Positions 1 through 58,708 of a stretch of 64,000 nt of DNA are shown piece by piece. Origin of the DNA: Candidatus Parvarchaeota archaeon. GTDB taxonomy: Archaea > Nanobdellota > Nanobdellia > JAAOXT01. The stretch is taken from contig JAFCDO010000003.1 in assembly GCA_017609605.1 (NCBI GenBank), positions 24,470 through 88,469 of the forward strand, read 5' to 3'. Numbering within the stretch: position 1 is the stretch's first letter; every line of letters starts with the position of its first letter. The notes beneath the pieces are model-generated. The model searched no databases. It worked only from the letters and a program-made list of their open reading frames with translations, and was not told where the DNA came from. The position numbers were made by a program, and so were the translations under genes.

Positions 1-1
1 A

Positions 2-310
2 CTAGCAGGAGGATTAGGAGGACTATCCACAGCCACTGGCGAGCAAGGTTCTCAAGCAGAAGGAACAATAGGAAGCCTGCCAGGTGTAGTAACGGGAACT
101 GGATGCCCGGCAACACCGGACTGCACGCTAAAAGCTTGCCTGGGTAAATCCTGCAGTAAGGATAGCAAAACAGGACAATGTTTATCCATAGGAGTTTGTG
201 GAGGATACTCTGGAGGGGATTGTGGAAGCAATTCAGACTGCTTAATCGCAGGCCAAGAATGTGACATACCAGAAGAAGAATCAAAAGGAATTTGCAAAAC
301 CACTGTTTAA
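2..310 (+). CDS. C-terminal part of a cysteine-rich exported protein (5' end outside window)
   Basis: The frame is open from the window edge to TAA at 308-310. Own translation: ...TGCPATPDCTLKACLGKSCSKDSKTGQCLSIGVCGGYSGGDCGSNSDCLIAGQECDIPEEESKGICKTTV*. The Cys spacing parallels the C-terminus of the next gene. It is absent from the ORF track because it has no start in the window; the 52..303 minus ORF is its shadow. Confidence 0.7.
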   Translation, partial: LAGGLGGLSTATGEQGSQAEGTIGSLPGVVTGTGCPATPDCTLKACLGKSCSKDSKTGQCLSIGVCGGYSGGDCGSNSDCLIAGQECDIPEEESKGICKTTV

Positions 311-357
311 AACTTACAATTTTTTTATTTTTTTTTTTAAAACCAACCCAAAAAAAG

Positions 358-762
358 ATGGAATTCAATAAAATCGTGATGATAATAATCGCATTAGTAG
401 TATTAATCGCTGCGATAGTGTTCTTTACAAGCCAACAAAGCTTCCTAACACAAGGCTTCGGCTCAATATCCGGCCAATCAGCTCAAGGAAGCGAGGAAAC
501 CGCTGGCAGAGTAGGAGACATAGGCACTACTGCTTCAGGAGTTGAGAACGAGTGCGCTGACGGAAAAGACAATGACGGCGACTTCCTGATAGACTGCGAC
601 GACCCTGACTGTATTAACAGGCCGTGCAAGAGCGGAGAAGACGTGGGAAGATGCCTAGCAGACGGCAGTTGTGGTGGATGGAGAGGAGGGCCCTGCACAA
701 AAAACAGTGAATGCATTTACTCTAGTTATGAATGCGTTGACGGGGCCTGCACTTTATCATAA
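358..762 (+). CDS. small N-terminally anchored cysteine-rich protein with acidic DNDGD motif
   Basis: I prefer the ATG at 358 (MEFNKIVMIIIALVVLIAAIVFF, a hydrophobic helix) over the track start at 292. ECADGKDNDGDFLIDCDDPDC is followed by CLADGSCGGWRGGPCTKNSECIYSSYECVDGAC. Confidence 0.7.
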   Translation: MEFNKIVMIIIALVVLIAAIVFFTSQQSFLTQGFGSISGQSAQGSEETAGRVGDIGTTASGVENECADGKDNDGDFLIDCDDPDCINRPCKSGEDVGRCLADGSCGGWRGGPCTKNSECIYSSYECVDGACTLS

Positions 763-815
763 CTCGTGATATCAGGAAAACCTTTATTTACGCGCAAAAC
801 CCTTCTACTTAAATA

Positions 816-1772
816 ATGGAGGATTGGGGAAACCTAATATTCGACTTCGCAGTTCTAGCAGTGTTTATACTAATTGTAACAGTAGTGGCTTTCGGCATAA
901 TCTCAGGACTCGGAGCTGTTTTCGCCCGCATAGCCTTCGAAAAATTCACTACAGGGATTAGCTCTGCATGCGTGAACGGATACGCGGAGATAGAGGACTT
1001 CTCACTGCCAGATGATTGGAACATAATACAAGTATATCCTGACGCTGAAAGAATGCAAGACATAATAAACGAGTTGAATGAGGAGGAAGGAATGATAGTT
1101 TTCTCCCCTTTATTTGAAGCACTAAGAAACAAAGTGCAAAGAGTAATCGACGTGACTAACACGACTGAAAACTCTTGCAACAGCCAGTTAATGGAAGGAA
1201 CGGGACAAGCCATGGGCTCGCCCTGCCTGTGCCTCATAAGAGCTCCGTCCATCTTAGACTTGAACTTAGAAAGTGACGCGTATAATTATGGTGATGTGCC
1301 CGTGCCTCTAATAACCACTAAAAACTTCAGAAACCTTAGAATCATGAGCTACGCGCCAAACCCTCTTCCTAAAATAGATTCGAACAACGGAAACGAAGTA
1401 ATTCGTTACTACATAAGCTTTCTGAAACAGGACTTCCATGACGATAAGAAAAGCGATTACGCAGTTCTGAAAAGCCTTGACACAATCTACTTTTTCACAC
1501 CAGTATCATTATTGATAGGAATTGATTCTCTTACTAAGTGGCCGTTAGTATTCATTGATAAGTTTGAGGCCTGCACGTCAATGAACTCCATGAAATGCGG
1601 AAACGCGCAACCCAACTTTTACAACAATTCAGCAATCCTTGCCATGAAAGAAGGTATGAACTTGAATCCTGTGTTCATGATAGTGGAGAACTCTCAAGCT
1701 TCACTGATCACTTTTGAAAAATCAGAGTCCTCCAGCACTTTCGAACCAGTGTACATGAGCACTCCGAGCTAG
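816..1772 (+). CDS. exported protein with pilin-like N-terminus, paralog family copy 1
   Basis: N-terminus is MEDWG|NLIFDFAVLAVFILIVTVVAFGII. It shares the blocks F.KFT....AC.NGYA and C-x8-GTG-x5-C.CL with 2020..3054. Confidence 0.65.
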   Translation: MEDWGNLIFDFAVLAVFILIVTVVAFGIISGLGAVFARIAFEKFTTGISSACVNGYAEIEDFSLPDDWNIIQVYPDAERMQDIINELNEEEGMIVFSPLFEALRNKVQRVIDVTNTTENSCNSQLMEGTGQAMGSPCLCLIRAPSILDLNLESDAYNYGDVPVPLITTKNFRNLRIMSYAPNPLPKIDSNNGNEVIRYYISFLKQDFHDDKKSDYAVLKSLDTIYFFTPVSLLIGIDSLTKWPLVFIDKFEACTSMNSMKCGNAQPNFYNNSAILAMKEGMNLNPVFMIVENSQASLITFEKSESSSTFEPVYMSTPS

Positions 1773-1813
1773 AGAAGAACTTTTATTAATTCTGAACACT
1801 TTGATTTAAACCA

Positions 1814-2008
1814 ATGAAAAAGGGATCGGAAATGAGTTTTAAAATGGTTTTTACACTAATAATAATCCTGATAGTTGCGGTTGTGGTAATCTTATTCATA
1901 CTTCCGAACATTGAGTCTGGAAAAGCTAACATCGGGAACGTCACACAAGGCTCTGAAAACTTGTTAGGCAACGCTAGTGAAGGATTAACCCAAATAAAAG
2001 TGTCTTAA
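1814..2008 (+). CDS. small pilin-like protein (64 aa)
   Basis: MKKG|SEMSFKMVFTLIIILIVAVVVILFIL: a short basic leader, then Gly, then about 22 hydrophobic residues and a short polar tail. Confidence 0.55.
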   Translation: MKKGSEMSFKMVFTLIIILIVAVVVILFILPNIESGKANIGNVTQGSENLLGNASEGLTQIKVS

Positions 2009-2019
2009 ACAAAAAAAAA

Positions 2020-3054
2020 ATGGCGAGAATGCTGTTATACGGAGAAATAATTAAGGACGTGCTAGTTTTAGTGTTCGTTCTCGTTGTAGGAGCAATAGTT
2101 GTTTCAGGAGGAATAAGCTTTCTTGCAGGGACTGAGGCCAGAGCTAGCTTCGCAAAATTCACTAGAGTGCTGCAAGGAGCCTGCGATAACGGTTACGCGG
2201 CGGACACGGGCTTCAAAATACCTTATGGTTACATGATAATACAAACACACCCCGAAATCGATACCTTAAAGGAAAATTACGAACAACTTCCAACAATGCA
2301 GAGCTTTTGGATATGGTCTGTTGACAAGTCCGAGCAATTAGCGCAGGAAAAACAAAAATTCGAAGGAGAAATCCAAAAATGCAATGCAAACGTTGCAGCG
2401 GGAACAGGAGGAATAATAGGTGATAACTGCGTCTGCTTAGCTAGCGTGAACACCAACACGTTCATGGACGTTCTTAACTGGATAATGAGTTTAGGCCAGA
2501 GCACCCCTCCATCAGATAACAATTTTATTTATTTTTTTGGAGGAGAACAACCCATCTTTGACCAAAACACGAAGGCAATTGATATGGTGGGAACAAAGGA
2601 TTACGCTTTCACCCCTGAAAAAAATGTTTTCGGGATTGGAAGCATGACCTACTTGGTCGTGAACAACGTTAATGGCGAAACAATATCTTACGATATTGAA
2701 GGAGTTTACGGCACGGCCTACACTGCGCTGGAAGAATTCTCAAGGGCCACGTTCTTAGCGTCTGCTTATTCCATTGCAGGAGCGTCCTGGCCAATGGACT
2801 TCCCATTCTTCAACAAAATCATAACATGCAAAAAACTGTCAGAACTGGGTTGCGAAAACCAAGGCGCACCAGCCATAATAGGACTCAAAAACCCGTCGAA
2901 CCCGTCACAAGCATTCATACCAATTCTCATGGGTTGGAGTGAAACCAGCGCGGACGTGATAAGCGCAACCCAAAACGAAAAAGCATACCAAACAGTGAAT
3001 AGCAACGAAGAAAGAGTCTTTCACCCAATATTCATCAAAGCAGTAGGAGGATAA
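2020..3054 (+). CDS. exported protein with pilin-like N-terminus, paralog family copy 2
   Basis: N-terminus is MARMLLYG|EIIKDVLVLVFVLVVGAIVVSGG. FAKFTRVLQGACDNGYA and CNANVAAGTGGIIGDNCVCL align with copy 1 (816..1772). Confidence 0.65.
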   Translation: MARMLLYGEIIKDVLVLVFVLVVGAIVVSGGISFLAGTEARASFAKFTRVLQGACDNGYAADTGFKIPYGYMIIQTHPEIDTLKENYEQLPTMQSFWIWSVDKSEQLAQEKQKFEGEIQKCNANVAAGTGGIIGDNCVCLASVNTNTFMDVLNWIMSLGQSTPPSDNNFIYFFGGEQPIFDQNTKAIDMVGTKDYAFTPEKNVFGIGSMTYLVVNNVNGETISYDIEGVYGTAYTALEEFSRATFLASAYSIAGASWPMDFPFFNKIITCKKLSELGCENQGAPAIIGLKNPSNPSQAFIPILMGWSETSADVISATQNEKAYQTVNSNEERVFHPIFIKAVGG

Positions 3055-3060
3055 AAACTT

Positions 3061-4851
3061 TTGGCGTCAATAGAAACCGTAGGAGCACTGGTCGCAGCAG
3101 CAATACTAGTGGTGGGGTCAGCGTTCGTCGTTCAAAGAATGATGGCGCCAAGCTTTGACATGGGAAAAAAAATGGCTCTGCTCGTTTACGATGTTGCATC
3201 CTTAAGAGAAGCTTGCACAGCCGTCCCGGACAATGTTTACGTGCTGTACTACGGCACGCCCGACTGCAAATGGGAACAAGGAATTTATTATTGCCAAGGA
3301 GAAGAAATCAACATAACCGCGCTAAGATTGGATCCAGCTTTCGTTAAAACCCGTCCGGCCCCCTGCACCCAAAGCGTGAACACGCTTGCCTACGAGTCCA
3401 TGAAAGTCGAGTACACTGTTGACGAGGAAAAGAGAAGCCAAAGCTTCCCAACAAGCCAGCACTTCACAGACTTCGCTGAAGAAAAAGCCCTTGAAAGACA
3501 AAGCATTCCATTATACATTCAACCAAGAACAGATTCTGTTCTCATCTCCAAACAAAGAAGAACTTTTTACGATTCGTTGACAAGTGGACTGTTCTTTGAT
3601 AAGGAGGGCACGACGCCCGTAATCATTGCAGAAGACGTGGGGATGATAAGGTTATTACAGGATGTGATGAGTGTTTACGCGCAAATGGAGAACAGCGTGT
3701 TTACTAATAAAACAACAAGCCTCAGCTTAACTCCAGGGTTTAGAATAGAATTTTCCGACACGTTAGAAAACTCTTACCTCCCTCCATGCACTGGCTTGAC
3801 AAATCCCGAAAAATTGTTGGAAATAGGGACTGGCACAGTTAAAAGATGCTACTGCGATGATTGCACTGATAATGAGTATTGTAAACAAGTGTCAAGTTCA
3901 TACGAATGCGTGTCCTGTACTTATAATCCTATCAACCCTTCAGAACCAGGAAGCGAGGAGGGATGCCCTGAAACTTATTACTGCGGACAGGACGGTTACT
4001 GCCATGATGAAACACTGGTGATTTGTCAGCAAAAACAAATTGTGAGTCCGAAGGGACTTTTCACGTGGGTCGAACAAGAAGGCGAATCAACCGCTGAAAC
4101 TTCTTTAAAAAACGCGAACGAAAACCTTCCACTCTCAAACATTGCATACTCAATTGGCAACGTCAAAACATTTTACCCAGAGTCAGAAAGTGTGGAAGGC
4201 ATGACTTCAAGATTAATCCCAGTAGAGTACACCAGTCCAGAAACCCAAACAATATCCGAACAACCATTAGTGAGATACGAGCACGGGTTCCCTGAATCAG
4301 GATGGGTCAACGAGATCTGCGTGAACTTGAAAAAAGACGTGACGAGCAAAGGGTTCGAATTAATGATTGATGTCCCACACGTAATAACAGCAATTTATTC
4401 GTGGAGTGACTGGTGCACGACTCTAGATGTGTCCTTGGATTACGAGGTGTGCGCTGACAGTAAGGGAACTTTAACCCATGATGATGATGGAATAATCCTG
4501 ACATCCCAAGAAAACTGTGTTGTCACGCACTACCCTTCCTGCGACGGAAGCGTGAATGAAGAAGACGACCCGCGCAAAGGATGCGTTTCAAAAACGTTTG
4601 ATGACATCAACACAAACAATTGTTGCTTAGAAACCGGCGAGTGCGGGCCATGCATTCCAAAACACGATTCCTGCGAGCAACCAAACTGTTTTTGCCAAGA
4701 CTTCAACCAATGCAAGCAATGCACTCACGACTCGGGAGACCCGAAGAGTTTAGGTGATGAAGCAGGCTGTCCGATAAGCTATTGTTGCGGGCCAGACGGT
4801 TACTGCACTGACAACACAGATTTCTGCAATTGGGTGGGGGTGGGGACGTAA
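3061..4851 (+). CDS. large cysteine-rich exported protein (596 aa) with an internally duplicated Cys module
   Basis: TTG start 6 nt after the previous stop. N-terminus is ASIETVGALVAAAILVVGSAFVV. There are two copies of C[YF]C..(C)..G.E.GCP..Y.CG.DGYC.D.T, at nt 3847-4010 and 4687-4830. Confidence 0.65.
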   Translation: MASIETVGALVAAAILVVGSAFVVQRMMAPSFDMGKKMALLVYDVASLREACTAVPDNVYVLYYGTPDCKWEQGIYYCQGEEINITALRLDPAFVKTRPAPCTQSVNTLAYESMKVEYTVDEEKRSQSFPTSQHFTDFAEEKALERQSIPLYIQPRTDSVLISKQRRTFYDSLTSGLFFDKEGTTPVIIAEDVGMIRLLQDVMSVYAQMENSVFTNKTTSLSLTPGFRIEFSDTLENSYLPPCTGLTNPEKLLEIGTGTVKRCYCDDCTDNEYCKQVSSSYECVSCTYNPINPSEPGSEEGCPETYYCGQDGYCHDETLVICQQKQIVSPKGLFTWVEQEGESTAETSLKNANENLPLSNIAYSIGNVKTFYPESESVEGMTSRLIPVEYTSPETQTISEQPLVRYEHGFPESGWVNEICVNLKKDVTSKGFELMIDVPHVITAIYSWSDWCTTLDVSLDYEVCADSKGTLTHDDDGIILTSQENCVVTHYPSCDGSVNEEDDPRKGCVSKTFDDINTNNCCLETGECGPCIPKHDSCEQPNCFCQDFNQCKQCTHDSGDPKSLGDEAGCPISYCCGPDGYCTDNTDFCNWVGVGT

Positions 4852-5714
4852 TGGCGGATTTCAGCTTGAAAGGACCTATATACATGCTCTGGCTAGTCTT
4901 ATTGTTCTTTATAGTAGTCATCACTTTAGTGTTCAAAGTTCAAAACATTGGATTCAGCATTGACTCGCTTCAAAGCGAAACCCGATTCCTCGTGTTCTCC
5001 AGAAAAATGCTTTCCAGCGCTGACTGCCTGGCATTCGAACAAAAAGACATTCTGATAACGGACGAGCCAGACTACAACGTGTACTACAAGCAAAGAATCT
5101 ACCCAGGAGTGCTGGACGCTTACAAACTCGAAAACTGGAAGAACATGGAATGCATAAAACAAGACGATCCTGAAATAAGTCTTGGAGGAAGAGCTTACAA
5201 CCCGTTTGAAAGACCTGTCATCCTATACTCTATCGTTGTTCAAGACGTTGAAAACGATAACACGTGGTTCTTCACCAAAACACACGACAGGTCATACTTC
5301 ATACCATCCTACCCTAACGCTGATTCCACGAGTTATAGGGGGGTGCCTTGTATGTGGGCCACTCCGTGCAATTCAAGCCTCGGGGACAAAGTCTATCAAT
5401 ACAGTTATCCGGTGTTCATTGTTTACCAAGACAAGCAAACAGGAGACCAGGTCAAGCACTTAGGAAGATTCTTCGGCAAATTCTGCGAAGCGTCACCATC
5501 ACCACAAATAGTGAACGCGTACATAGCCTGGAACATTGACCCTAACTGGGAGTGCGGTGAACATGAACTGATAAGAAGCTTGCTGTTCGGCTGGAAATAC
5601 TGCGGGGAAAGCTCGCCCAACCCAGATAACTTCCGCTGGGACTTATACGACTGCGTGCAATACTACACTGCAGAAGAACTTGGGGAAACAACACAATTCG
5701 AGGTGCAAGTATGA
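4851..5714 (+). CDS. exported protein with pilin-like N-terminus (287 aa)
   Basis: The ATG at 4851 shares one base with the preceding TAA (TAATG). N-terminus is MADFSLKG|PIYMLWLVLLFFIVVITLVF. Confidence 0.6.
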   Translation: MADFSLKGPIYMLWLVLLFFIVVITLVFKVQNIGFSIDSLQSETRFLVFSRKMLSSADCLAFEQKDILITDEPDYNVYYKQRIYPGVLDAYKLENWKNMECIKQDDPEISLGGRAYNPFERPVILYSIVVQDVENDNTWFFTKTHDRSYFIPSYPNADSTSYRGVPCMWATPCNSSLGDKVYQYSYPVFIVYQDKQTGDQVKHLGRFFGKFCEASPSPQIVNAYIAWNIDPNWECGEHELIRSLLFGWKYCGESSPNPDNFRWDLYDCVQYYTAEELGETTQFEVQV

Positions 5715-6184
5715 AAAAAGGAGACTTCACAGGAGTAGGCGTGGTAATAAGCACGCTAATCATAATGGGACTGCTTTTAGTGATGTCCATGTTCGTGGAC
5801 TCTGTTAGCATGCAAGCAATACTCTCAATAAAAGACGCTGAAACCAGCAGTATGTGCACAAACCTTCTTGAAAACCTTGTGAGCAGCGACTACTCAAAAA
5901 CAGGAATGACTCCGGACACATTCCTCAAACAAAAATACCAAAGTCTTTACAACAGGTCAGCGTCATACTTCGCGTTCCAAGAAGAACTTGAAAGAAACCC
6001 AGGGTTTGAGCAAAGCGTGGGAATGCACGTTCGCTTCGGCTCAAGCTCAGAGCTAAGAAGCATAATCAGCGATGAAGCCACCCAAAAATACGCGCTACAA
6101 TGCTTCATAAAAGTTTACTCGCCCTCAGGCGAGCCAACAATAGTTATGATGTTCAAAAAACAAGGGGTGACGTTCACGCCATGA
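5711..6184 (+). CDS. pilin-like protein (157 aa)
   Basis: ATGA start/stop overlap with the previous gene. N-terminus is MKKG|DFTGVGVVISTLIIMGLLLVMSMFV. Confidence 0.6.
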   Translation: MKKGDFTGVGVVISTLIIMGLLLVMSMFVDSVSMQAILSIKDAETSSMCTNLLENLVSSDYSKTGMTPDTFLKQKYQSLYNRSASYFAFQEELERNPGFEQSVGMHVRFGSSSELRSIISDEATQKYALQCFIKVYSPSGEPTIVMMFKKQGVTFTP

Positions 6185-8766
6185 AAAAAGCCCAATCCCT
6201 AGCTTACATACTTGTAACAATATCAATATTGTCGCTAGCAGCGTTCGGGATGGGCTACATTGCGATAAGAGCTTCCTCAGAATCAGCCCTGCCTTTTTAT
6301 AGAACACAAATAGTTCAGACAGCCCAAACAGCGGAAAACATCAAATTCCTACTGGACAGGGAAAGAAGATACACGTTCGAAAAAATAATTTACCAAATAG
6401 GGAGTAGGGGTGGTTACGGAGGAAACCAAAGCCAAATAAGAGACCAGGAATGCGGTTACTTAGACACACTCCCAAAACACAATTACATGCCAGAAAAAAT
6501 AGTGCCTTACTGGTACAACGCGTCCTCTAACCCCACTTTCTGCATTCCGGAATTCACGTCAATACTCAATAACATAACACTTATAGCTGAAAGATTCTCA
6601 GCCACGCCAGACCAGAACTTCCTAAACAGTCTAGAAATAGTTTACGGACTGGACTTCAACGTGAAATACGTTTACCAACTGGCGTCGTGCGGAGTGAAAA
6701 ACAGCGACATTGGAGGAGACCTGTGCCCATCATCAGATAGGAATTACTTTGAAAATCAATGGTTCATAGTGGGCGACGACAAGATAAGACTTCTTGGCGC
6801 GAGCTACCAAGGCAAGCCATCCGTCAGCTACACTGCCACAACCCTCGTGCACAACGTGGTGGAGAACAAATTCCCAAGCCTTTACGAAGAAGCCAAAAAC
6901 TTTGTCTTAAACAAAGACTACGAAACCATGGCCAAACAACAACTCAACAAATACTCAATCATCACGCACAACGAAACCTGCGCTTACAGTATAGACCAAA
7001 CAGGAACGTACTCGGCGGACACGAGCTACGGAGAGGAAGTAAACCCGGACTCGACGATAACAGGGTTTGACGAGGATAGGCAGTGCACAGGCTCTTACTC
7101 AAGCGGGATGAACGATGTTCACGTGCTAAAACAAAGATTCGCTTTCAACACCGAAAACTACAATGAAACAAGTCGAGACTGTGGTGGTGATAACTGCAAA
7201 ACCACGATGGTCAGCATGTGCGTTGACGGTGAATGGACGGGTTGCGTTCCAGGAATCAAGAAAAGCGTTGGGGAATTTGTTTGGTATGAGACCCCTAATC
7301 CAGAGTTCAGCACACAAAACCCGACGTGCAAGATAAAAAGCAGAGAACCAATGCGTACAGGGACTTGTTCAGGAGAGGAACCTGTGAACTGTAGTGCAAC
7401 CTGTTTTTATGATGCTTCCCGAGTGGAAAAAATGATTCTTGACGAGTTCAACTCTGAAAGAGGCCTTGCAGCATCGCATGACGGGTACAACTACACGTTC
7501 ACGGACAACGAAGCCAGCATTGATTACGTTGACACAGGGGGTGACGAGGGCCCTTACACTTACGCCATGGAAACGTACAACACCTCATGCGTTCCCTGCG
7601 ATCCCAGAGATATGTTAGATGATTGGTCTTTAATCAAAATAGACTCTGACGGCACGATAGATTGGGATAACACGGATAGGCAGAGAGTCAGAGACTTCTA
7701 CGATGATGTTTGGAATGATGGTAACAACGATTTGGAAGAAGCCCCGCCGTACTCTGACAAAAAAGTTCAAACCCTGACAAGATTCGACGACGAATTTGAA
7801 AACCAGTTGTTTAAAGCTTACGGCGCGCTTTCAGGGAAAATAAAAGGTTATTACTCTTTCAACGACCAACTAATACAAGCAAGTGCTTGCCAAAGCGTAG
7901 GAGCTTATTTCGACTTGTCCGAGCACTTCGCAAGACAACAAGCAATAAGATGGTTTATTAGAAATTACGATACTAATAACAATCAAATAGGAGGAACTGA
8001 ACAGCCCAGTAGTTATAACGATAAAATTAGGTTGGGATTAACGTTTCCTGAAGGAAGTAATTACGCCAGAACTGATGTGACTGCATGCGTGACCGCAAAC
8101 TATGTTTCAGGCAGTCCTCCGAGCACAACGCAAAACGTTGACAACCCTCAAACCCGGCACACGAACTGCACTACTATGAGCATTACGCTTGACGCCAAAC
8201 CCGTTCCAACCGCGGTAATATCACCAATTGGTAAAATATTGTACCCCGGTGGGTGGTGGTGTGGAGGTATAACTTGGGTGGATTCAGTGAATTATTGGTT
8301 AAACGCTCAAGGATCAAGCCAAAAAATAAATCTCGATTCGCAATGCGGGATACCTGAAACTGATTGTGATTATCACTGGCAAGTTAAGAACAGAGATGGA
8401 GACATTATTTACCCTTCACCTTCTTCGCCAACCGAAAACCCAAGGGATTTAATCACGTTTGTGGAACACGATACTGATTGTACGCAGGGATACCCTGAAT
8501 CAAGTATAAACGTGAAATTAACGGTTATTTGCACGCACAGCTCAGGGTTCACCACTAGCGCGGTAACCCAAACAACCTTTGGTTATAATAATATAAATGT
8601 TTGCGAACAAACAGGGTACTGTTGCGCTAACTGCGCTGCCGGAACATTCATATCTCTTTTTAACCCAGCGACACAAAACTGTTGCTCTGGAACAGATATT
8701 CTTGGAAACGAATACTTTGTGGTACGCGGTTCTTGTTGGGGGCTGGAGGTGAACCGCTGTGGATAA
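6181..8766 (+). CDS. large cysteine-rich exported protein (861 aa)
   Basis: I prefer the ATG at 6181 (ATGA overlap with the previous stop) over the track start at 6100. N-terminus is MKKA|QSLAYILVTISILSLAAFGMGYIAI. Cys-dense, e.g. the C-terminal CEQTGYCCANCAAG...NCCSG...GSCWGLEVNRCG. Confidence 0.65.
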   Translation: MKKAQSLAYILVTISILSLAAFGMGYIAIRASSESALPFYRTQIVQTAQTAENIKFLLDRERRYTFEKIIYQIGSRGGYGGNQSQIRDQECGYLDTLPKHNYMPEKIVPYWYNASSNPTFCIPEFTSILNNITLIAERFSATPDQNFLNSLEIVYGLDFNVKYVYQLASCGVKNSDIGGDLCPSSDRNYFENQWFIVGDDKIRLLGASYQGKPSVSYTATTLVHNVVENKFPSLYEEAKNFVLNKDYETMAKQQLNKYSIITHNETCAYSIDQTGTYSADTSYGEEVNPDSTITGFDEDRQCTGSYSSGMNDVHVLKQRFAFNTENYNETSRDCGGDNCKTTMVSMCVDGEWTGCVPGIKKSVGEFVWYETPNPEFSTQNPTCKIKSREPMRTGTCSGEEPVNCSATCFYDASRVEKMILDEFNSERGLAASHDGYNYTFTDNEASIDYVDTGGDEGPYTYAMETYNTSCVPCDPRDMLDDWSLIKIDSDGTIDWDNTDRQRVRDFYDDVWNDGNNDLEEAPPYSDKKVQTLTRFDDEFENQLFKAYGALSGKIKGYYSFNDQLIQASACQSVGAYFDLSEHFARQQAIRWFIRNYDTNNNQIGGTEQPSSYNDKIRLGLTFPEGSNYARTDVTACVTANYVSGSPPSTTQNVDNPQTRHTNCTTMSITLDAKPVPTAVISPIGKILYPGGWWCGGITWVDSVNYWLNAQGSSQKINLDSQCGIPETDCDYHWQVKNRDGDIIYPSPSSPTENPRDLITFVEHDTDCTQGYPESSINVKLTVICTHSSGFTTSAVTQTTFGYNNINVCEQTGYCCANCAAGTFISLFNPATQNCCSGTDILGNEYFVVRGSCWGLEVNRCG

Positions 8767-11125
8767 AAAATTACTTTTCATAACTGCTTGTTTGTTCATC
8801 ATCCCGACAGTTATTGCAGCGAACCCGTCAGACATTTACAACGGATTCATGGAAATGTACTACAACAACCAGTCCGGCAACACTGTCATGGTTCTTGGAA
8901 GCGCTTTATCGGAATACAAGGCCCCGCCTGAAACAGTTGATCCATTCCAAAATGTGGAAGACGACCAAACAATTTACGTAGATGTTTCAATGGACGGAGA
9001 GATAAGCGCGTCGGAGAACGCTGCGTGCACGCTAGAACACATAGGCAAAAGATGCGCGAAAAAAGAAGATGACTCGTGGTTTACTGGAACTTGCAAGATG
9101 ACTAGTTACGAATACATCTGTCCTGCAGATAAGGGTTGTTATGAAGACGAAGACACTGGAAATTGTGAGAGAATCATAAACTTCAGATTTTTTGAAAGAA
9201 CTTTCCCTTGCCCCATGGAAAGAAAAAACGTTTACGACTGCTCTCCAAACGAGTGGAACTCCAGAACAGGAATTGGCTGCGAGGACGGGCAGTGCATGGA
9301 CGCGTGCAACAACGAAAAAGACGATGACAATGACGGACTACCTGATGGGGATGACGAGGACTGCCAAGGAGGAGTGCAAGAACCCATGTCATGCGACGGC
9401 GTGAACTGCGCTGGATATAACTTAACTTCATTCGTCAACGTTTCCGACCCAAAAATCCTTTGCTGTATGGACTTCCCTAACAAGATGGAGAAAAAAATTC
9501 TGAGCCTACCCATCAAATTTACCTTCGCCATAAAAGGAGATACAAGCATAAGCCATACTACAAGCAATTGGCCGTCAAGCTGGGAAAACAATTGGAACGC
9601 TGAAGCAGGAACCACTGAATGGAACCCGCCAGGAGACTGCTACGTGGACCCTTATGTAAGAGATGGGGATGAAAACATCGTGGTCGAGATAGGCATCAAC
9701 AAATGGAAAAACTGTGGTCCAGTCCAAACGTTTTGCCAAGACAGTTGCGCCGAAGCAAAATTAGACTCTTCAGTTTGTCAGGACTTGGTTGGTCAAGACG
9801 ATTGCTACCTGAAAGGAACGGGCAAACACGCGATAGATTCAATACCTCAAGAAGACGTTTATACTGATTTGTCAGGAGACGAAGGAAGCATAACAATCAC
9901 TAGAATGGATAAAGCGTTCGGAGTAGTTGACGAAACACTAACATTTACTATCGATGAAAAATTTTATGGAACCGGGTATATTTACGTGCAAGACGCTAAG
10001 TACAAGTGCACGGCAAGTGGTACCTGGGAGGAGTGTGAACTAGACTCCGTTTCAGGCCCTCAAACCTCGATTTTTGAGATAAGTAAGACTTGCTTGGCAG
10101 GTAATGGGGCGAGTTATGATTTGGTCAGGGAATGGAAATACTGTTATGACTATGAGTACGACTACGACGTGATCACGTCAGCGGATTACGGTCAAAACGT
10201 GCCAATACCTGTCTACGAAAACAAACTAGGGTTTCTGGACTATAATTACTTCCCTTACTGCGGGAACGGCGTGGCAGAGACGGATTTAGGCGAGAACTGT
10301 GAGAACTGCCCGCAAGACATGAGTTTGTCTTATTGTCCGCTTTATGATTCAGAAGGAGCTTTTTGCAACCCAAATTGTCCAGCACAGGATAGGGATGCTT
10401 GCGGGTACATGATAAGAATTGATGATGCGGGAGAAGAATTAATGGACAACGAGCAAGAAATCAAGATGTGCTTCATGAAACAGAAATTTGATTACAGCGG
10501 AGAAAATGTTAAGTATTATGATTCTAACAAAGCCAATAACGCTATTGATGGGGGGATGATACAGCGGAGCAGGAACTGTCTTGAAGCCAATTGGTTAGGA
10601 TGTTGTTGGTGGATGTTAATACCCGGGTTTGGACAAGTAACCGAGCTGATAGGTGGTGTTTGCGCTAACTGCTTGACAGACGTGTGCATGGCGCCGAGCT
10701 ACCCACAGGTAAGGGAGTCAATGCAAGAATGCATACAAAAATACGAAAGCAAAGTAAGCGCCAGCGTAGCGGGTAAAGAATGCACTAGCTCATGTGAGTG
10801 CCAGCCAGGCTCTACTTGTTCTGGACTCGACCAAACTCCTGGAAAGTACTGCTGTCCAAAAGGAACGACGTGGACGCCACTCGGGTGCGAGCGAAGCGTA
10901 GGAGACTACGACGTGCAAAAAATAATGGATTGGGCGGAAAGAACATACATCTGTGACGTCATCGTGAACTTCGGGCAAGTTCACTTCAAGTGTTTAACTG
11001 GAGTAGGATGTACTGAGGACTCTGGCTTCTTCTGGTCTTGGACTAACCTTTGTCACTCTTTTGAAGGAACTCACTACACGCTTGACCAATATCCAGATAA
11101 TGATTATCAATATCCCATGATATGA
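8759..11125 (+). CDS. large cysteine-rich secreted protein (788 aa)
   Basis: GTG start overlapping the previous gene by 8 nt. Sec-like signal MDKKLLFITACLFIIPTVIA|ANP. Acidic DDDNDGLPDGDDEDC motif. YCGNGVAETDLGENCENC resembles the CGNG..GE.C cysteine-rich repeat of secreted proteins. Confidence 0.65.
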   Translation: MDKKLLFITACLFIIPTVIAANPSDIYNGFMEMYYNNQSGNTVMVLGSALSEYKAPPETVDPFQNVEDDQTIYVDVSMDGEISASENAACTLEHIGKRCAKKEDDSWFTGTCKMTSYEYICPADKGCYEDEDTGNCERIINFRFFERTFPCPMERKNVYDCSPNEWNSRTGIGCEDGQCMDACNNEKDDDNDGLPDGDDEDCQGGVQEPMSCDGVNCAGYNLTSFVNVSDPKILCCMDFPNKMEKKILSLPIKFTFAIKGDTSISHTTSNWPSSWENNWNAEAGTTEWNPPGDCYVDPYVRDGDENIVVEIGINKWKNCGPVQTFCQDSCAEAKLDSSVCQDLVGQDDCYLKGTGKHAIDSIPQEDVYTDLSGDEGSITITRMDKAFGVVDETLTFTIDEKFYGTGYIYVQDAKYKCTASGTWEECELDSVSGPQTSIFEISKTCLAGNGASYDLVREWKYCYDYEYDYDVITSADYGQNVPIPVYENKLGFLDYNYFPYCGNGVAETDLGENCENCPQDMSLSYCPLYDSEGAFCNPNCPAQDRDACGYMIRIDDAGEELMDNEQEIKMCFMKQKFDYSGENVKYYDSNKANNAIDGGMIQRSRNCLEANWLGCCWWMLIPGFGQVTELIGGVCANCLTDVCMAPSYPQVRESMQECIQKYESKVSASVAGKECTSSCECQPGSTCSGLDQTPGKYCCPKGTTWTPLGCERSVGDYDVQKIMDWAERTYICDVIVNFGQVHFKCLTGVGCTEDSGFFWSWTNLCHSFEGTHYTLDQYPDNDYQYPMI

Positions 11126-12382: not shown

Positions 12383-13522
12383 ATGGAGAATCTTATGTCT
12401 TCTGCAAAAGGATTTGGCATCCAAAAAGAAGAACCCAGCTATGAAAAAGAGGTTAGGTCCGATATGTCCAGAACACTGGACGTCGACGCCGAACTGGAAG
12501 AACTATTATCTAAAAAGAAAGCAGCGATAAAAGTTGTCGGTGTTGGAGGTGCAGGTAACAATACGATAACAAGAATGACTGACGTAGGTATTAAGGGCGC
12601 AGAATTAATTGCTATGAATACAGACGCTCAAGACCTTCTCGTCGCACTAGCTGATAAAAAATTATTGCTAGGTAGAGACGTTACAGGAGGATTAGGTGCA
12701 GGCGCGGACCCTAAAAAAGGTGAAGAAGCAGCTAAAGAAACAGAGCAAGAAATAAAACAGGCCCTCCAAGGCGCGGACATGGTGTTCATAACATGCGGAC
12801 TTGGTGGCGGAACAGGTACTGGAGGTGCTCCAGTAGTAGCTGAAGTAGCTAAAAAAATAGGTGCGCTAACAGTTGGTGTTGTAACCCTGCCCTTTGGTAT
12901 AGAAGGAAGGAAGAGAATGGCCAACGCTCAAGAAGGATTGGAAAAACTTCAAGGAATAGTTGATACTTTGATAGTCATTCCAAACGATAAGTTGTTAGAA
13001 ATTGCGCCAGACCTGCCGTTGTTCACTGCTTTTAAGGTTGCGGACGAAATACTGACCAACGCCGTGAAAGGAATTGCTGAAATGGTAACCAAGCCAGGCC
13101 TGATTAACTTAGACTTCGCGGACATTAAAGCGGTTATGAAAGAAGGAGGAGTGGCGATGATTGGTGTGGGAGAGAGCGATACTGAGAACAGGGCGATTGA
13201 GGCCGTTGAGAAAGCAATTCAGAACCCATTGCTAGACGTGGACATATCCGGGGCCAAAGGAGCGTTAATTAATGTTGCTGGTGGAGCGAACATGACGTTA
13301 GAAGAAGCAAGACAAGTTGTTCAGACCGTTAGTGAGAAGTTGGATGGTGACGCGAAAATTATTTGGGGAGCGCAAATAAGCAACGACTTACAAGACACTA
13401 TAAGGACCATACTCATAGTGACTGGAGTTCAATCACCCCAAATCTTCGGGCCGTCAAGCACTTTTGAAGACCAGAGAAAACGCAAAATAGAGAAAGAACT
13501 CGGAATCGAATTCTTAAGGTAA
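12383..13522 (+). CDS. ftsZ: cell division GTPase FtsZ, paralog 1
   Basis: [17 protein letters not shown], the tubulin signature [16 protein letters not shown], and [11 protein letters not shown]. Confidence 0.95.
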
Positions 13523-23218: not shown

Positions 23219-23791
23219 TCAAGAATTCATTTTTTCAATTTCTTTTTTTCTTTTTTTCATTTCTTCATCAAATATTTTTTTTGCAGTTGAAGTGTAAAAC
23301 CGATTATTCTTCATCCGAGACTCCCAATGTTTTTTGGGAGTTTCCTCATATGCTTTAACATTTGAATAAAAATCTTCTTTGAAACAGTCTGACAGAGTAT
23401 CAGCGTCAATCAACAATCTTTTGTCAAGTTCTTCAGGGTTTTGAAACTTATGAGCTACGACAATATCAATTATTCTTTCAATTCTTTCTTTTTTATAACC
23501 TAAACCGCCCAAAATCTTTGAGATTATTTCGGGCGCATATTTTATGTGTAACCTTAATGCTTCAATCCTACCCTCTTCATTCTGGCTTCTTTGCAATTTT
23601 ATTGGAACTTTAGCCCATCCAACATCATGAACTATCGCTGCAGGAACCAGTATGTTTCTATCCTCTTCCTCTTTTTTTAGAAGTAATTCCATTGCCTTGG
23701 TAACTGATTTAGAGTGGAGAACAAAATTTTTTCTAACACCTTTTTTCAGATAAGGAATTGTTAAACCCCACAATTCTTTGAATTGTTCCAT
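23219..23791 (-). CDS. HD-domain phosphohydrolase
   Basis: H...HD motif (VLHSKSV...AAIVHDVGW) and a later D (LIDADTLS). Confidence 0.6.
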   Translation of the reverse strand: MEQFKELWGLTIPYLKKGVRKNFVLHSKSVTKAMELLLKKEEEDRNILVPAAIVHDVGWAKVPIKLQRSQNEEGRIEALRLHIKYAPEIISKILGGLGYKKERIERIIDIVVAHKFQNPEELDKRLLIDADTLSDCFKEDFYSNVKAYEETPKKHWESRMKNNRFYTSTAKKIFDEEMKKRKKEIEKMNS

Positions 23792-23795
23792 AATA

Positions 23796-23870
23796 TGGAC
23801 CCGGAGGGATTTGAACCCCCGACATACAGCTTAGAAGGCTGTCGCGCTATCCAGGCTGCGCCACGGGTCC
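23796..23870 (-). tRNA. tRNA-Arg (anticodon TCT)
   Basis: Reverse complement folds by hand as a cloverleaf: GGACCCG TG GCGC AGCCTGGATA GCGC G ACAGC CTTCTAA GCTGT ATGTC GGGGG TTCAAAT CCCTC CGGGTCC A. All four stems pair. Confidence 0.9.
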
Positions 23871-23895
23871 CTGTCAAAACATTTAATTCTTTTGC

Positions 23896-23909
23896 AAGGT
23901 TTTTAAACC
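23896..23909 (+). promoter_or_regulatory. TATA-box-like element upstream of the surface-protein gene
   Basis: aaggtttttaaacc is centred about 25 nt upstream of the ATG at 23927. Confidence 0.45.
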
Positions 23910-23926
23910 TTTTTACCTTTAAAATA

Positions 23927-26209
23927 ATGAAATCAAAACGTTTAAAAAACCTTTTCGAATCCTTTTCAAACACGATAATGAAACCACGATTAATAATAAC
24001 CACACTACTCGTAGCGTTCCTGTTCTGCACAGTTATTGCTGCAGATTATGACGTGGAAAACGTTAGGGCCAGTCCTTCAATTGTTGGCGAGGACGAACAC
24101 TTGCTGTTGTGGGGAAGAATAGATAACAACAATTTATCAGAATCCACTACTCCGGATAGACTCGAAATAGAAATAACTGATGGGGACGGCGACCACATCA
24201 GAAACTTGGACCCGCAATTCCACGCTGATGACGGCAATGACAAAGCGTTAAGCACAGGAGCTTTCATAACAAAAATAGAAACAGACGACTTGGATGAAGG
24301 AGAAACCTATTTTATAACCCTTAAAATAGATGGATTAATTCATTATTCCAGACAATTAACCCTTCAAAACACTGAAAGAAACGTGACCATAAAAATATTG
24401 AGCACGTGGCTTGACAATCACGATTTTCACTCAAACCTAAAACTGACTAACGAAAAAGATTACGCTCAAACAATCAATATAACGTTCATTGGCAACGGAG
24501 AAGAACAAACCCAAACCATTGATTTGGAGGCGGGCGAGACCAAATACGTGGAATCCATAATGGATTTCAACGATTTGAACATAAACACTGGAGCCAACAT
24601 AATAGTTGTTACAGCAGACTATCCAGGAGGAGAAGCCTTAACTGATTACGCTTTCTTCATGAAAGGCACAAAAGACTATTCTAATTATTACGACGCTGAA
24701 ATAACGTGTCAAGAGGAAGTGATAAGAAAAGAAACCATAAACCAAGTTCCGATAACCATTAAGAATGCGGGAAGCCTTACAACAGAATTCTCGCTATCAG
24801 TAATCTCAGGCGACCTGAAAGACCAGACTTCAGTCAGTGAAGAAAGAATCACGCTAAAACCCGGGGAAACAGGCAAAATAAACCTCGTTGTCACGGTTCC
24901 ATCAAACTTGACATTAAACCAAACCAGTTTTGATTTAAGAGTGGAGTACGCGGGAAAAACCGCTGAAAAAACTGTTTACCTAAACATTGAAGAAAAAGAG
25001 AAAACCCATTACTTCACCGTAGAAGGCGTGACCGTAGAAAAAGATGTTTACTTTATAGGCGAATTCTTGAACGGGACGATACAACTCAAAAACAGGGGAG
25101 ATTTCGACGAACAAATAACCGTGGAATACGGTTACTCCAGCGGAGTTTTAGGAACCACAGGAGTTATAAGCTTGACAAAAGGTCAGACAAAAAACATTCC
25201 ATTTTACATATATCTTCCAGGATACGTTGAGAACAACGAACTCGAATTAACGTTCACTGCAACCTCTAAAAATTATGTTTTCACAGCGAAAACTAACATA
25301 ACAGTGCAAACACCAGTGCACAATTTCTTTCTGGTTGAGTCATCTCCTTACAGAAACGAAATGGAACAAGGAGACAAACTAAACCTTTCCTTCGTCCTGT
25401 TTAATATAGGTAATAATGATTCATACACAATAAAAGCTGATTGGCCTTACTCAGATCTCCCACCAAAATTCAATCTCAACCAAGGAGAGCATAAAACGAT
25501 TACCGTGACTGTTCACGCTCCAAGCGAGTACGACGTGACAGGAGAGAACATTATAACAATCAAAGTCTGCTCAGCTCATGTTGAAACTTGCCAAGAAAAA
25601 AGGTATTTGGTCAACGTGAAAACCGTGCAAGAATCAAGCGTTGTAACATTCCCTGAAACCAATGAACTCTTCTTTGAAGGAGAAATCATTGATTATGATT
25701 TCGTGATTAAGAACGCGGAAGACGTTGCAAGAAGGTATCAAATTCAAGTAACGGGCTTACCAAAAGACTCTTTCACACTCCTGCCAGGAAGCGATGAAAC
25801 AATTTTTCGCGATCAATCCGTTCAATTTAAGGTTAGGATAAATAACTTAAAATCAGGATTCCACGAAACAACGATAAGCGTTTACGAAGAAGGAGAACTC
25901 ATGGGCGCTAAACAAATAACTGTTCAGTCCAAAAGCAACGGTTTAACAGGCCAGTTCGTAAACGTCGTTAGCGCAGGAGTACCCGTAATCATGGTAATAA
26001 TTGTGGGCGGCTTAATCAGTGGTTGGATGTACATGAGAGGAAGGGAAACAAAAGTTTATGATTACTGGAAAAAACCTGCAACCAAGAGTGATGAAAAACA
26101 AAAAACCAAGAAAGTGATGAGCGACCTCAGAAAAAAAGTGCTTGGCCTAAAAGAAAACCTTAACCCAAAACAAGTAAAACCTTATACCGACTACTTTAAA
26201 AAAGTGTGA
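23927..26209 (+). CDS. repeat-domain cell-surface protein with C-terminal membrane anchor (S-layer/adhesin candidate)
   Basis: The track start at 23783 overlaps tRNA-Arg, so I prefer the ATG at 23927 (or 23978). Signal-like KPRLIITTLLVAFLFCTVIAADYD. Repeated beta-type segments of the form ..I.[IL]KN.G...... (ITIKNAGSLTTEFSLSV, IQLKNRGDFDEQITVEY, FVLFNIGNNDSYTIKA, FVIKNAEDVARRYQIQV) are reminiscent of CARDB/NEW3-like domains. C-terminal TM helix VPVIMVIIVGGLISGWMYM plus a Lys-rich tail. Confidence 0.6.
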   Translation: MKSKRLKNLFESFSNTIMKPRLIITTLLVAFLFCTVIAADYDVENVRASPSIVGEDEHLLLWGRIDNNNLSESTTPDRLEIEITDGDGDHIRNLDPQFHADDGNDKALSTGAFITKIETDDLDEGETYFITLKIDGLIHYSRQLTLQNTERNVTIKILSTWLDNHDFHSNLKLTNEKDYAQTINITFIGNGEEQTQTIDLEAGETKYVESIMDFNDLNINTGANIIVVTADYPGGEALTDYAFFMKGTKDYSNYYDAEITCQEEVIRKETINQVPITIKNAGSLTTEFSLSVISGDLKDQTSVSEERITLKPGETGKINLVVTVPSNLTLNQTSFDLRVEYAGKTAEKTVYLNIEEKEKTHYFTVEGVTVEKDVYFIGEFLNGTIQLKNRGDFDEQITVEYGYSSGVLGTTGVISLTKGQTKNIPFYIYLPGYVENNELELTFTATSKNYVFTAKTNITVQTPVHNFFLVESSPYRNEMEQGDKLNLSFVLFNIGNNDSYTIKADWPYSDLPPKFNLNQGEHKTITVTVHAPSEYDVTGENIITIKVCSAHVETCQEKRYLVNVKTVQESSVVTFPETNELFFEGEIIDYDFVIKNAEDVARRYQIQVTGLPKDSFTLLPGSDETIFRDQSVQFKVRINNLKSGFHETTISVYEEGELMGAKQITVQSKSNGLTGQFVNVVSAGVPVIMVIIVGGLISGWMYMRGRETKVYDYWKKPATKSDEKQKTKKVMSDLRKKVLGLKENLNPKQVKPYTDYFKKV

Positions 26210-26853: not shown

Positions 26854-26887
26854 AATTTTAATAAAAACAAAAACATAATTGATAGAC

Positions 26888-36900: not shown

Positions 36901-37297
36901 GAGAAGAGGAAGCAACGCTGAAAGAGAGCTTGCTAAAAAGTTTTATGAAAAAGGTTTCGCGGTCCTGCGCGTAGCTGGAAGCGGTGCCGCCCAATACCCC
37001 ACTCCGGACCTGCTGGTCATGAAAGATGACATGGTTTTGGCTATTGAGTGCAAGATGCGTAAACAACCCTTCATTTATTTGACGGAAGGGGACGTGCAAA
37101 CCCTTAAAGCATTTAGGGATAGGGCGGGCTGCGAAGCGTACTTCGCCATCAAGTTTTTGAAGCACGGCTGGCACTTTTATCCCTTGCAAGAAGTGATTGA
37201 CCAAGGCAAACCCTACAAAATCTTGTTAAAAGAAGCAGGCGCGGCCCTAACAATACATCATTTCGTGAACGGCATGCGACAAAAAAAACTGGTTTAA
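36893..37297 (+). CDS. hjc: Holliday junction resolvase Hjc
   Basis: GSNAERELAKKFYEKGFAVLRVAGSG...PDLLVMKDDMVLAIECKMRK...FAIKFLKHGW matches the Hjc catalytic core (E..D..EXK). Confidence 0.9.
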   Translation: MGKRRGSNAERELAKKFYEKGFAVLRVAGSGAAQYPTPDLLVMKDDMVLAIECKMRKQPFIYLTEGDVQTLKAFRDRAGCEAYFAIKFLKHGWHFYPLQEVIDQGKPYKILLKEAGAALTIHHFVNGMRQKKLV

Positions 37298-37370
37298 GCC
37301 TTTGGTGAGATTTGAACTCACGACCCCCTGCTTACGAGGCAGGTGCTCTAAACCGCTGAGCTACAAAGGC
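37297..37370 (-). tRNA. tRNA-Thr (anticodon CGT)
   Basis: Reverse complement: GCCTTTG TA GCTC AGCGGTTTA GAGC A CCTGC CTCGTAA GCAGG GGGTC GTGAG TTCAAAT CTCAC CAAAGGC T. All stems pair. Confidence 0.9.
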
Positions 37371-58669: not shown

Positions 58670-58708
58670 ATCTAAAACTTTTTTAACCCAGAAAAACAAG
58701 ATTTTATC

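Follow-up and report, generated by a model that had tools for sequence, protein, structure and literature searches.

The ten-gene block and its products

The DNA considered here is a stretch of 64,000 nucleotides, referred to as the window, from contig JAFCDO010000003.1 of Candidatus Parvarchaeota archaeon (assembly GCA_017609605.1). Its first part, positions 1-11125, is a block of genes for cysteine-rich and pilin-like proteins, which is argued below to be the distal part of a putative archaeal type IV filament locus. According to the list of open reading frames (ORFs) and to direct reading, ten consecutive plus-strand ORFs, g0 to g9, occupy positions 2-11125. The preliminary description of the sequence had counted the same ten genes, the first of them cut by the window edge, and the junctions it gave proved to be exact: TAATG at 4849-4853, ATGA at 5711-5714 and 6181-6184, and a GTG start at 8759 inside g8. 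Where neighbouring genes do not overlap, they are separated by 6-53 nt.

Of g0 (2-307, translated in frame 2), which encodes a small pilin-like protein, the window contains the 3' part only. It is followed by g1 (358-762, 134 residues), a leaderless pilin-like protein with the start MEFNKIVMIIIALVV; g2 (816-1772, 318 residues), where MEDWG precedes the N-terminal helix; g3 (1814-2008, 64 residues), a mini-pilin of the form MKKG|SEMSFKMVFTLIIILIV (the vertical bar marks the putative cleavage site); and g4 (2020-3054, 344 residues), a paralogue of g2 whose alternative start at 2029 would give MLLYG|EII. Gene g5 (3061-4851, 596 residues) has a TTG start with GGAGG upstream and encodes an N-terminal helix. 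The TAATG overlap joins it to g6 (4851-5714, 287 residues, MADFSLKG|PIYMLWLVLLFF). The block is completed by g7 (5711-6184, 157 residues, MKKG|DFTGVGVV), g8 (6181-8766, 861 residues, MKKA|QSLAYILV) and g9 (8759-11125, 788 residues), the latter with a GTG start, GGAGGTGA upstream and an acidic DDDNDGLPDGDDEDC motif. By reading of the sequence, GGAGG, GAGGTG or GGAGGTGA-like motifs stand 6-17 nt 5' of the g5-g9 starts, so that these starts, TTG and GTG included, are supported. The g0/g1, g1/g2 and g2/g3 spacers (41-53 nt) are A/T-rich with TATA-like runs and may hold promoters of their own. Given the tight coupling of g4-g9 and the A/T-rich spacers between g0 and g3, the block would thus consist of a coupled g4-g9 module preceded by small, possibly separately promoted genes.

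Class III (prepilin-type) sites were judged by pattern and hydropathy scripts. The hydrophobic N-terminal helix earlier reported for every product was seen in all nine complete ones, where it is the single hydrophobic segment. An equally hydrophobic N-terminal 19-mer is present in 9/9 block products versus 2/48 other products of the window (Fisher p = 6e-9), and both of the latter are polytopic membrane proteins. The canonical K-[G/A] pair abuts the helix in g3 (MKKG|SEM), g6 (SLKG|PIY), g7 (MKKG|DFT) and g8 (MKKA|QSL) only, and these sites are conserved in the orthologues of two other genomes. Gly and Ala are exchanged at the site between orthologues of g7 (KG versus KA, MKKA|AFTG) and of g8 (KA versus KG, MKG|QS), while the K-G of g6 is kept. 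Of six class III sites proposed previously, these four stand, whereas those of g2 (W-G) and g4 (Y/F-G) are non-canonical. The g5 N-terminus, MASIETVG|ALV, is of uncertain class. The majority of the block N-termini are not Sec-like, and acidic residues can be read at +1 to +5 of the putative site in g1, g2, g3, g4 and g7.

Further information on processing comes from a family of mini pilin-like paralogues comprising g1 (window 358-762) and genes at L002:7300-7443, 7447-7593, 8393-8575, 8629-8865, 8867-9061 and 9067-9471 in a close relative (genes of this relative are designated k). Some members carry a leader (MNNKG|MEFQTIATLL, MNMNKKG|IQFQTI) and others do not (MEFQTIATLL, MQFQTIFTLL, MEFNKIVM). 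The full-length orthologues of g0 (h0 and k13) are 134-142 residues long and start with MNNKG|MEFQTI or MNMNKKG|IQFQTI. Paralogue k13 reads MNNKG|MEFQTIATLL, while k11 starts directly at MEFQTIATLL, and the leaderless forms begin exactly at the predicted +1 residue. The boundary of the leader in the k13/k11 pair is therefore the predicted G|+1 point, which provides independent sequence support for processing there. The sole in-frame start upstream of g1, which has no leader, is a TTG at a distance of 22 codons, and a gene starting there would reach back into g0; the orthologue k14 has no such start at all. The upstream paralogues k6, k7, k10 and k11 of the relative also lack a leader, and most leaderless forms have no upstream in-frame start. 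These leaderless mini-pilins raise the possibility of peptidase-independent pilins. Elsewhere in the window, two exported proteins bear ordinary Sec-type signals, namely an 808-residue protein with Ig-like domains (FixG_C, CARDB; 23783-26209, plus strand) and a 616-residue protein with a Lon/S16 proteolytic domain (26879-28729, plus strand); their h-regions are short, as against helices of 20-24 residues in the block.

Cysteine makes up 4.4% of residues in the block versus 1.0% in housekeeping proteins, which fits extracytoplasmic disulfide-rich domains. The three large products had been described as dense in cysteine, and counting confirms this (35 Cys in the 596 residues of g5, 32 in the 861 of g8, 53 in the 788 of g9). 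The acidic motifs of the DNDGD type are also present: g1 and g9 match the acidic double-disulfide family NF033662 of NCBIfam (acid_disulf_rpt) weakly, with E = 8e-8 and 31.9 bits for g1 and 12.4 bits for g9 at a cut-off of 41. The density of N-glycosylation sequons, considered as an export marker, is not enriched (0.55 versus 0.46 per 100 residues).

A C-terminal Cys-knot module is common to g0 and g1. In g0 this C-terminus is knottin-like, with 10 Cys in 101 residues; in g1 the knottin-like module is accompanied by a low-complexity linker and the acidic double-disulfide motif. One small upstream paralogue passes the Conotoxin knottin model (26.2 versus 25.1 bits). Genes g2 and g4 encode paralogues over their full length, with six invariant Cys, and g3 is essentially a helix with a short tail and weak similarity to ComGC pilins (E = 9e-4). 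Two Cys-knot modules were found in g5, at window positions 3841-4029 and 4672-4848, the second being residues 538-596 (GCPISYCCGPDGYC). This C-terminal module matches positions 8-31 of the 38 of the Chitin_bind_1 profile (E = 3e-4, 21.4 bits, cut-off 27.8); it is weakly hevein-like and might serve as a lead for glycan binding.

No family of Pfam or NCBIfam was matched above its cut-off by any of the ten products, and sequence searches of the PDB with g8 and g9 returned no relatives, in line with the earlier remark that no enzyme family is recognised in the large products. The PilY1/Neisseria PilC beta-propeller was found in g5, g8 and g9 neither in Pfam and NCBIfam nor in the PDB, and the PilY1/PilC and minor-pilin families gave no match at E <= 1 in Pfam/NCBIfam. 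S-layer or characterised adhesin domains were found neither in the Pfam and NCBIfam scans of the block nor in the PDB searches of g8 and g9. A reading of the block as an S-layer or as generic Sec-secreted proteins was rejected, as it fits only g9.

Conservation and the upstream half of the locus in a relative

In the protein collection, g8 has one 100% identical entry and one 52% identical homologue. On the contig of this homologue (L001, a Logan assembly) all ten genes recur in unchanged order, with Alba, FKBP and FtsZ after them, and the identity to the window is 52-75% across the block. All ten genes are likewise found in the same order in the metagenome-assembled genome GCA_018221045.1 (Nanoarchaeota archaeon DPANNHV_H2.bin.114), where the nine complete products are 84-99% identical and the partial g0 is about 71-74% identical. 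The check for conservation and synteny suggested in the preliminary description thus yielded one gene order in three genomes. Homologue searches with g8 and with the g2/g4 and g7 profiles led to these same three genomes only, and when 1.84 billion cluster representatives were searched exhaustively with HMMER, the g2/g4 profile retrieved only its own two clusters.

By codon-level comparison with the close relative, the ratio of nonsynonymous to synonymous substitution rates (dN/dS) is 0.05-0.29 for every gene of the block, compared to 0.05 for Alba; the genes are therefore constrained, real coding genes. Leaderless g1 is 97.8% identical to k14 (dN/dS 0.10), g4 also shows a dN/dS of 0.10, and among the complete products g9 has diverged most (86.5% identity, dN/dS 0.18). 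Comparison of window 1-11125 with L002:9067-20309 revealed uneven dS values: about 0.02-0.18 in g1-g4 and g7, 0.27-0.44 in g5, g6, g8 and g9, with a maximum of 0.88 in g0. The large Cys-rich genes and g0 have thus diverged most (dS 0.27-0.88, versus about 0.1 in the small genes). Between close strains, the larger exposed genes may have undergone recombination or mosaic replacement.

In the relatives, the gene run does not start at g0. In GCA_018221045.1 it reaches, on the same strand and with gaps of no more than 67 nt, about 19 kb further upstream of the g0 homologue (locus L003). An ATPase gene (L003:4228-6510, same strand as the block) encodes 760 residues with the Walker A motif GTRGAGKT and matches Pfam T2SSE above the cut-off (E = 1.1e-16). 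Its NCBIfam matches to FlaI (1.8e-40), TadA (1.3e-37) and BasE (6e-20) all lie below the equivalog cut-offs, so it is considered a member of the superfamily and not an archaellum motor; its best PDB matches are afGspE 2oap, CpaF and FlaI. The overlapping gene (L003:6477-8609, same strand) encodes a 710-residue protein with about nine hydrophobic segments, which is probably a platform of the TadC/FlaJ type. It is followed by the gene for a 1,862-residue protein with 104 Cys and the start MKG|IIEPVAAAIVG, then by twelve genes for proteins of 47-362 residues, each with an N-terminal hydrophobic helix, and then by the homologues of g0-g9. From the ATPase to the g9 homologue, the run comprises 25 tightly spaced same-strand genes.

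The assembly machinery which the preliminary description had supposed to lie upstream is thus present there in the relative, as a T2SSE ATPase and a probable platform. Its observation that the window holds no assembly ATPase, platform protein or peptidase is also correct, since neither T2SSE nor T2SSF nor A24 was found in the window. The L001 contig starts with a homologue of k12, which in the close relative is the next gene before g0. The minus-strand gene call at L001:3-191 is an artefact, and the plus strand from base 1 encodes this 64-residue pilin-like homologue; the operon extends upstream in the L001 genome too. An 11-kb stand-alone operon is rejected because the gene run continues upstream in the relatives. 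In view of the 84-99% identity and the identical order, the contig of the window presumably carries the same upstream half.

A metagenome scan with the ATPase retrieved four more distant loci, with ATPases about 50% and platform genes about 33% identical, while a metagenome scan with the 1,862-residue protein gave no match. In L005-L007 the homologue of the conserved 710-residue protein adjoins the ATPase and is followed by small genes encoding a leader and a helix. Each of the distant loci has 8-10 small genes downstream of the platform, with starts such as MNKKG|, MSKKG|, MKKG|, MKKAG| and MNKIG|, and the leader leads into a hydrophobic helix of about 20 residues, which is the textbook class III arrangement. 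As far as the flanks are available, no large or Cys-rich protein occurs among them. In L005 and L006, the g3 profile matches proteins of 60-61 residues starting with MSKKG, the match being due to the N-terminal helix. Between the block families and the ORFs of L004-L007, BLAST and family hidden Markov models found similarity in this helix only, so that homology of the globular parts was rejected. With a similar motor and unrelated subunits across the loci, it follows that lineages keep the motor and exchange the exposed subunits wholesale.

Upstream of the ATPase, three tandem polytopic paralogues of about 180 residues with the motif PFLLVF..AIL.KSK(I/L)LG occur in all four lineages (L003:857-2519; L005:64-1556; L006:6004-7670; L007:4835-6839). 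They match no Pfam or NCBIfam family. A hidden aspartyl prepilin peptidase of the A24 type was rejected for this trio, which has no invariant Asp; it may be an unrecognised accessory component of the filament system.

The remaining part of the window is ordinary housekeeping DNA of the type known from the DPANN archaea (Diapherotrites, Parvarchaeota, Aenigmarchaeota, Nanoarchaeota as well as Nanohaloarchaeota), with genes for Alba, an FKBP-type isomerase, two FtsZ, ribosomal proteins, aminoacyl-tRNA synthetases and GatD/E. The FtsZ paralogues lie at 12383-13522 (plus strand) and 48275-49348 (minus strand), the second adjoining a MinD/ParA-like ATPase gene (47374-48162, minus strand). A TnpB/Cas12f-like protein is encoded at 38371-39462 (plus strand; Pfam Cas12f1-like_TNB E = 7e-19, weak OrfB_IS605) near a tRNA-Thr gene (37297-37370); it could belong to an element of the IS200/605 type or be a domesticated RNA-guided nuclease in this reduced genome. 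An ORF of at least 1,775 residues (58676-64000, plus strand) runs off the 3' end of the window. Its product is A-rich, helical or coiled-coil in appearance and not Cys-rich. Giant proteins are typical of DPANN genomes.

Interpretation and competing explanations

The explanation favoured here, with a probability of about three in four, is that window positions 1-11125 hold the ten genes at the distal end of a locus for an archaeal type IV filament, with a length of about 26 kb and about 25 genes. It would be a type IV pilus-like locus of the archaeal Tad/Epd/Aap type in a 'Nanoarchaeota' archaeon of the DPANN group. The evidence comprises the motor genes of the relative, the synteny in three genomes, the N-terminal architecture, the leader boundary and the purifying selection. 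Linkage to pilus machinery was found in the close relative, conservation of the block was confirmed, most N-termini are not Sec-like, and the S-layer and adhesin families characterised so far gave no match, so the outcomes listed beforehand as fatal to a pilin-like/adhesin operon with machinery upstream did not occur. This part of the preliminary interpretation is therefore supported. The term 'novel apparatus' was overstated, since the occurrence of type IV filament systems in archaea, DPANN and Nanoarchaeota included, is well documented (PMC4858521; bioRxiv 10.64898/2026.04.22.720090), and no new kind of machine is involved. The block is an elaboration, specific to its lineage, of a superfamily already known, that of the archaeal type IV filaments.

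In such a system, the pre-proteins would be inserted into the membrane in the N-in orientation, and a PibD/FlaK-type peptidase encoded elsewhere would remove the short leader after Gly/Ala. The motor formed by ATPase and platform would then extract the subunits by the hydrophobic helix and polymerise them. The tiny subunits (47-134 residues; g0, g1 and g3), some with knottin-like Cys tips, would form or decorate the fibre, g3 being a candidate fibre subunit. Minor-pilin-like primers would be provided by g2, g4, g6 and g7, that is, by members of the g4-g9 module and the g4 paralogue g2. The large disulfide-rich g5 and g8 could act as adhesive 'modular pilins', and g9 could be a non-pilin adhesin exported by Sec with a role similar to that of PilY1. 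The filament would mediate adhesion to a host cell or a surface, and a role in host or surface attachment is inferred. Type IV filaments have been proposed for host interaction (PMC6142677) and for filament-mediated attachment (bioRxiv 10.1101/2023.10.27.564410).

Several results weigh against the filament locus. The upstream machinery was observed in the close relative, and its presence on the contig of the window itself is extrapolated from there. A prepilin peptidase was found neither in the 64-kb window nor in loci L001-L007; two nanoarchaea without prepilin peptidase were listed by Makarova et al. (PMC4858521). Among the block products, only g8, together with its orthologues, fits a strict FlaFind-type motif, a K/R-G/A site is missing in g1, g2, g4 and g5, and the g9 N-terminus reads as Sec-type, with Pro in the h-region and PTVIA|ANPS at the end. 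The archaeal pilin families (Pfam Pilin_N, DUF361-type) gave no match at E <= 1 with the ten products. AlphaFold2, run on shallow alignments of g2 and g7, produced an unusable g2 model (predicted local distance difference test score, pLDDT, 39) with a helix at residues 2-54. For g7, one model out of five reached a pLDDT of 70; it shows a helix at residues 6-44 and, after it, a small alpha/beta domain, and a Foldseek search of the PDB with this model returned noise only (best E = 0.33). As to the platform, the 710-residue protein matches Pfam T2SSF below the cut-off (E = 5e-4, 20.4 bits versus 25.2), the match is not reproduced in its three homologues, and neither a PDB match (profile search) nor an internal repeat (hhalign) was detected. 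With these tests negative, the assignment leans mainly on position and topology.

Part of these results could be accommodated if the proteins of the block were ordinary signal-anchor surface proteins with uncleaved helices, adjacent to the motor or co-regulated with it without being its substrates. The four N-termini lacking the canonical K/R-G/A, the absence of pilin family matches in Pfam/NCBIfam, the absence of a peptidase gene in the window and the fetched loci, and the failure of the g2 and g7 models and of Foldseek to recover a pilin-like fold would all be expected. Such proteins would hardly be arranged in 25 tightly spaced same-strand genes beginning with an ATPase and a platform, however, and distant relatives show this layout again, there with unrelated proteins bearing leaders of the MNKKG type. 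The K-[G/A] pair is conserved with exchange between Gly and Ala, the MNNKG|MEFQTIATLL and MEFQTIATLL paralogues mark a processing boundary, and acidic residues follow the putative site in five products. Uncleaved anchors are therefore regarded as distinctly improbable. A somewhat better case, though still an unlikely one, can be made for a pseudopilus or bindosome-like system for display or secretion, in which the same motor would build, in place of long adhesive pili, a short envelope-embedded structure that positions or releases the large Cys-rich proteins at the cell surface; the Bas bindosome of Sulfolobus and the pseudopilus of T2SS are examples of such structures. The ATPase does match the BasE model (E = 6e-20), albeit more weakly than FlaI or TadA. 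The many class-III-like substrates, from 47 to 1,862 residues, are atypical for fibre subunits, and several products have no recognisable pilin globular domain. On the other hand, no substrate-binding-protein domain was found in the ten products with Pfam, and the helix-only subunits of 47-64 residues (g3, k5-k7, k10, k12) resemble the fibre subunits of the Flp type. The sequence data as such fit long and short filaments alike.

DPANN organisms are auxotrophic, and a competence-like DNA-uptake pilus might serve for nucleotide scavenging in a metabolically reduced archaeon. The g3 similarity to ComGC (E = 9e-4) and a ComGA match of the ATPase (E = 1.7e-10) point in this direction, but both lie far below the cut-offs and are weaker than the FlaI/TadA matches. 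Neither a ComEC- or ComEA-like channel nor a DNA-binding protein of this kind was seen in the locus or the window, and Com pilus systems are not characterised by large adhesin-like proteins rich in Cys. DNA uptake thus has very little probability.

A type IV filament locus remains the preferred explanation. A more far-reaching version of it, put forward tentatively and with considerable doubt, is that a filament of this DPANN clade is built in part from leaderless mini-pilins starting at the mature +1 residue, some of them with knottin- or hevein-like tips, together with giant modular pilins (596-1,862 residues) and a Sec-exported adhesin. It would represent a rapidly diversifying, host-specific attachment organelle, with a way into the filament that is wholly or partly peptidase-independent, and would be the very device by which an episymbiotic archaeon recognises its host.

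Comparison with known systems

Little is known about the means by which DPANN archaea recognise their hosts and stay attached to them, and type IV filaments are the usual suspects. The locus ties a recognisable motor to a complete, syntenic and constrained set of about 22 candidate subunits or adhesins that current family libraries do not see. These candidates are concrete targets for proteomics, N-terminal mapping, labelling in cryo-electron tomography and structure prediction. The pairs with and without leader define the processing site from sequence only and make peptidase-independent pilins testable. A conserved motor combined with wholesale replacement of subunits is the pattern expected for host-interaction surfaces. 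Five features are unusual: about 22 putative subunits in one operon of about 26 kb, although the genome is reduced; Cys-rich proteins of 596-1,862 residues whose N-termini are of the class III type; knottin-tipped mini-pilins; leaderless paralogues; and block families apparently absent from the libraries searched and from other lineages.

The closest counterparts are the archaeal type IV filaments (Epd-type 'system 1', Aap-like and clade-4), which share the FlaI/TadA ATPase, the probable platform and genes of the leader-G/A-helix type. Accessory or adhesin genes downstream of the platform are shared with subsystem 4A of some Nanoarchaeota (PMC4858521; bioRxiv 10.64898/2026.04.22.720090). Unlike these systems, the present locus matches no described pilin family, has a long ATPase of 760 residues and contains about 22 pilin-like genes, including leaderless ones and those for Cys-rich proteins of 596, 861 and 1,862 residues. 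Pilins matching one nanoarchaeal ATPase clade were not found by Makarova, Koonin and Albers in 2016 (PMC4858521).

Tad/Flp pili resemble the locus in that the ATPase is similar to CpaF/TadA and the helix-only subunits of 47-64 residues are like Flp pilins. However, no Flp motif is present, the best TadE/F/G match is noise (PF13400, E = 0.086, k11), and several of the small subunits bear C-terminal knottin-like modules. The Sulfolobus bindosome (Bas) shares the BasE match and large non-fibre proteins with class III-type N-termini; it differs in its sugar-binding proteins, of which there are none here, and the BasE match ranks below those to FlaI and TadA.

Two bacterial systems offer likenesses of organisation. 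In the minor-pilin/PilY1 operon of bacterial type IVa pili (fimU-pilVWXY1E; PMC7541494, PMC11525922), translation of several pilin-like genes of medium size is coupled to that of a large adhesin at the end, as it would be in the block with g9 as the candidate adhesin. PilY1 has a Sec-type and not a prepilin signal, as g9 does, and an acidic, probably calcium-binding motif may be a further common trait. There is no sequence similarity between the two, and the archaeal locus belongs to a single-membrane context with no secretin. Modular type IV pilins such as PilB of Streptococcus sanguinis (PMC8179133) combine a pilin N-terminus with a large, presumably adhesive domain, which is the organisation of g5, g8 and the 1,862-residue protein. 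The difference is in the domains themselves: instead of vWA or lectin domains, the archaeal proteins carry orphan domains rich in Cys knots, with the sub-threshold hevein-like match of g5 as the only resemblance to a known binding module.

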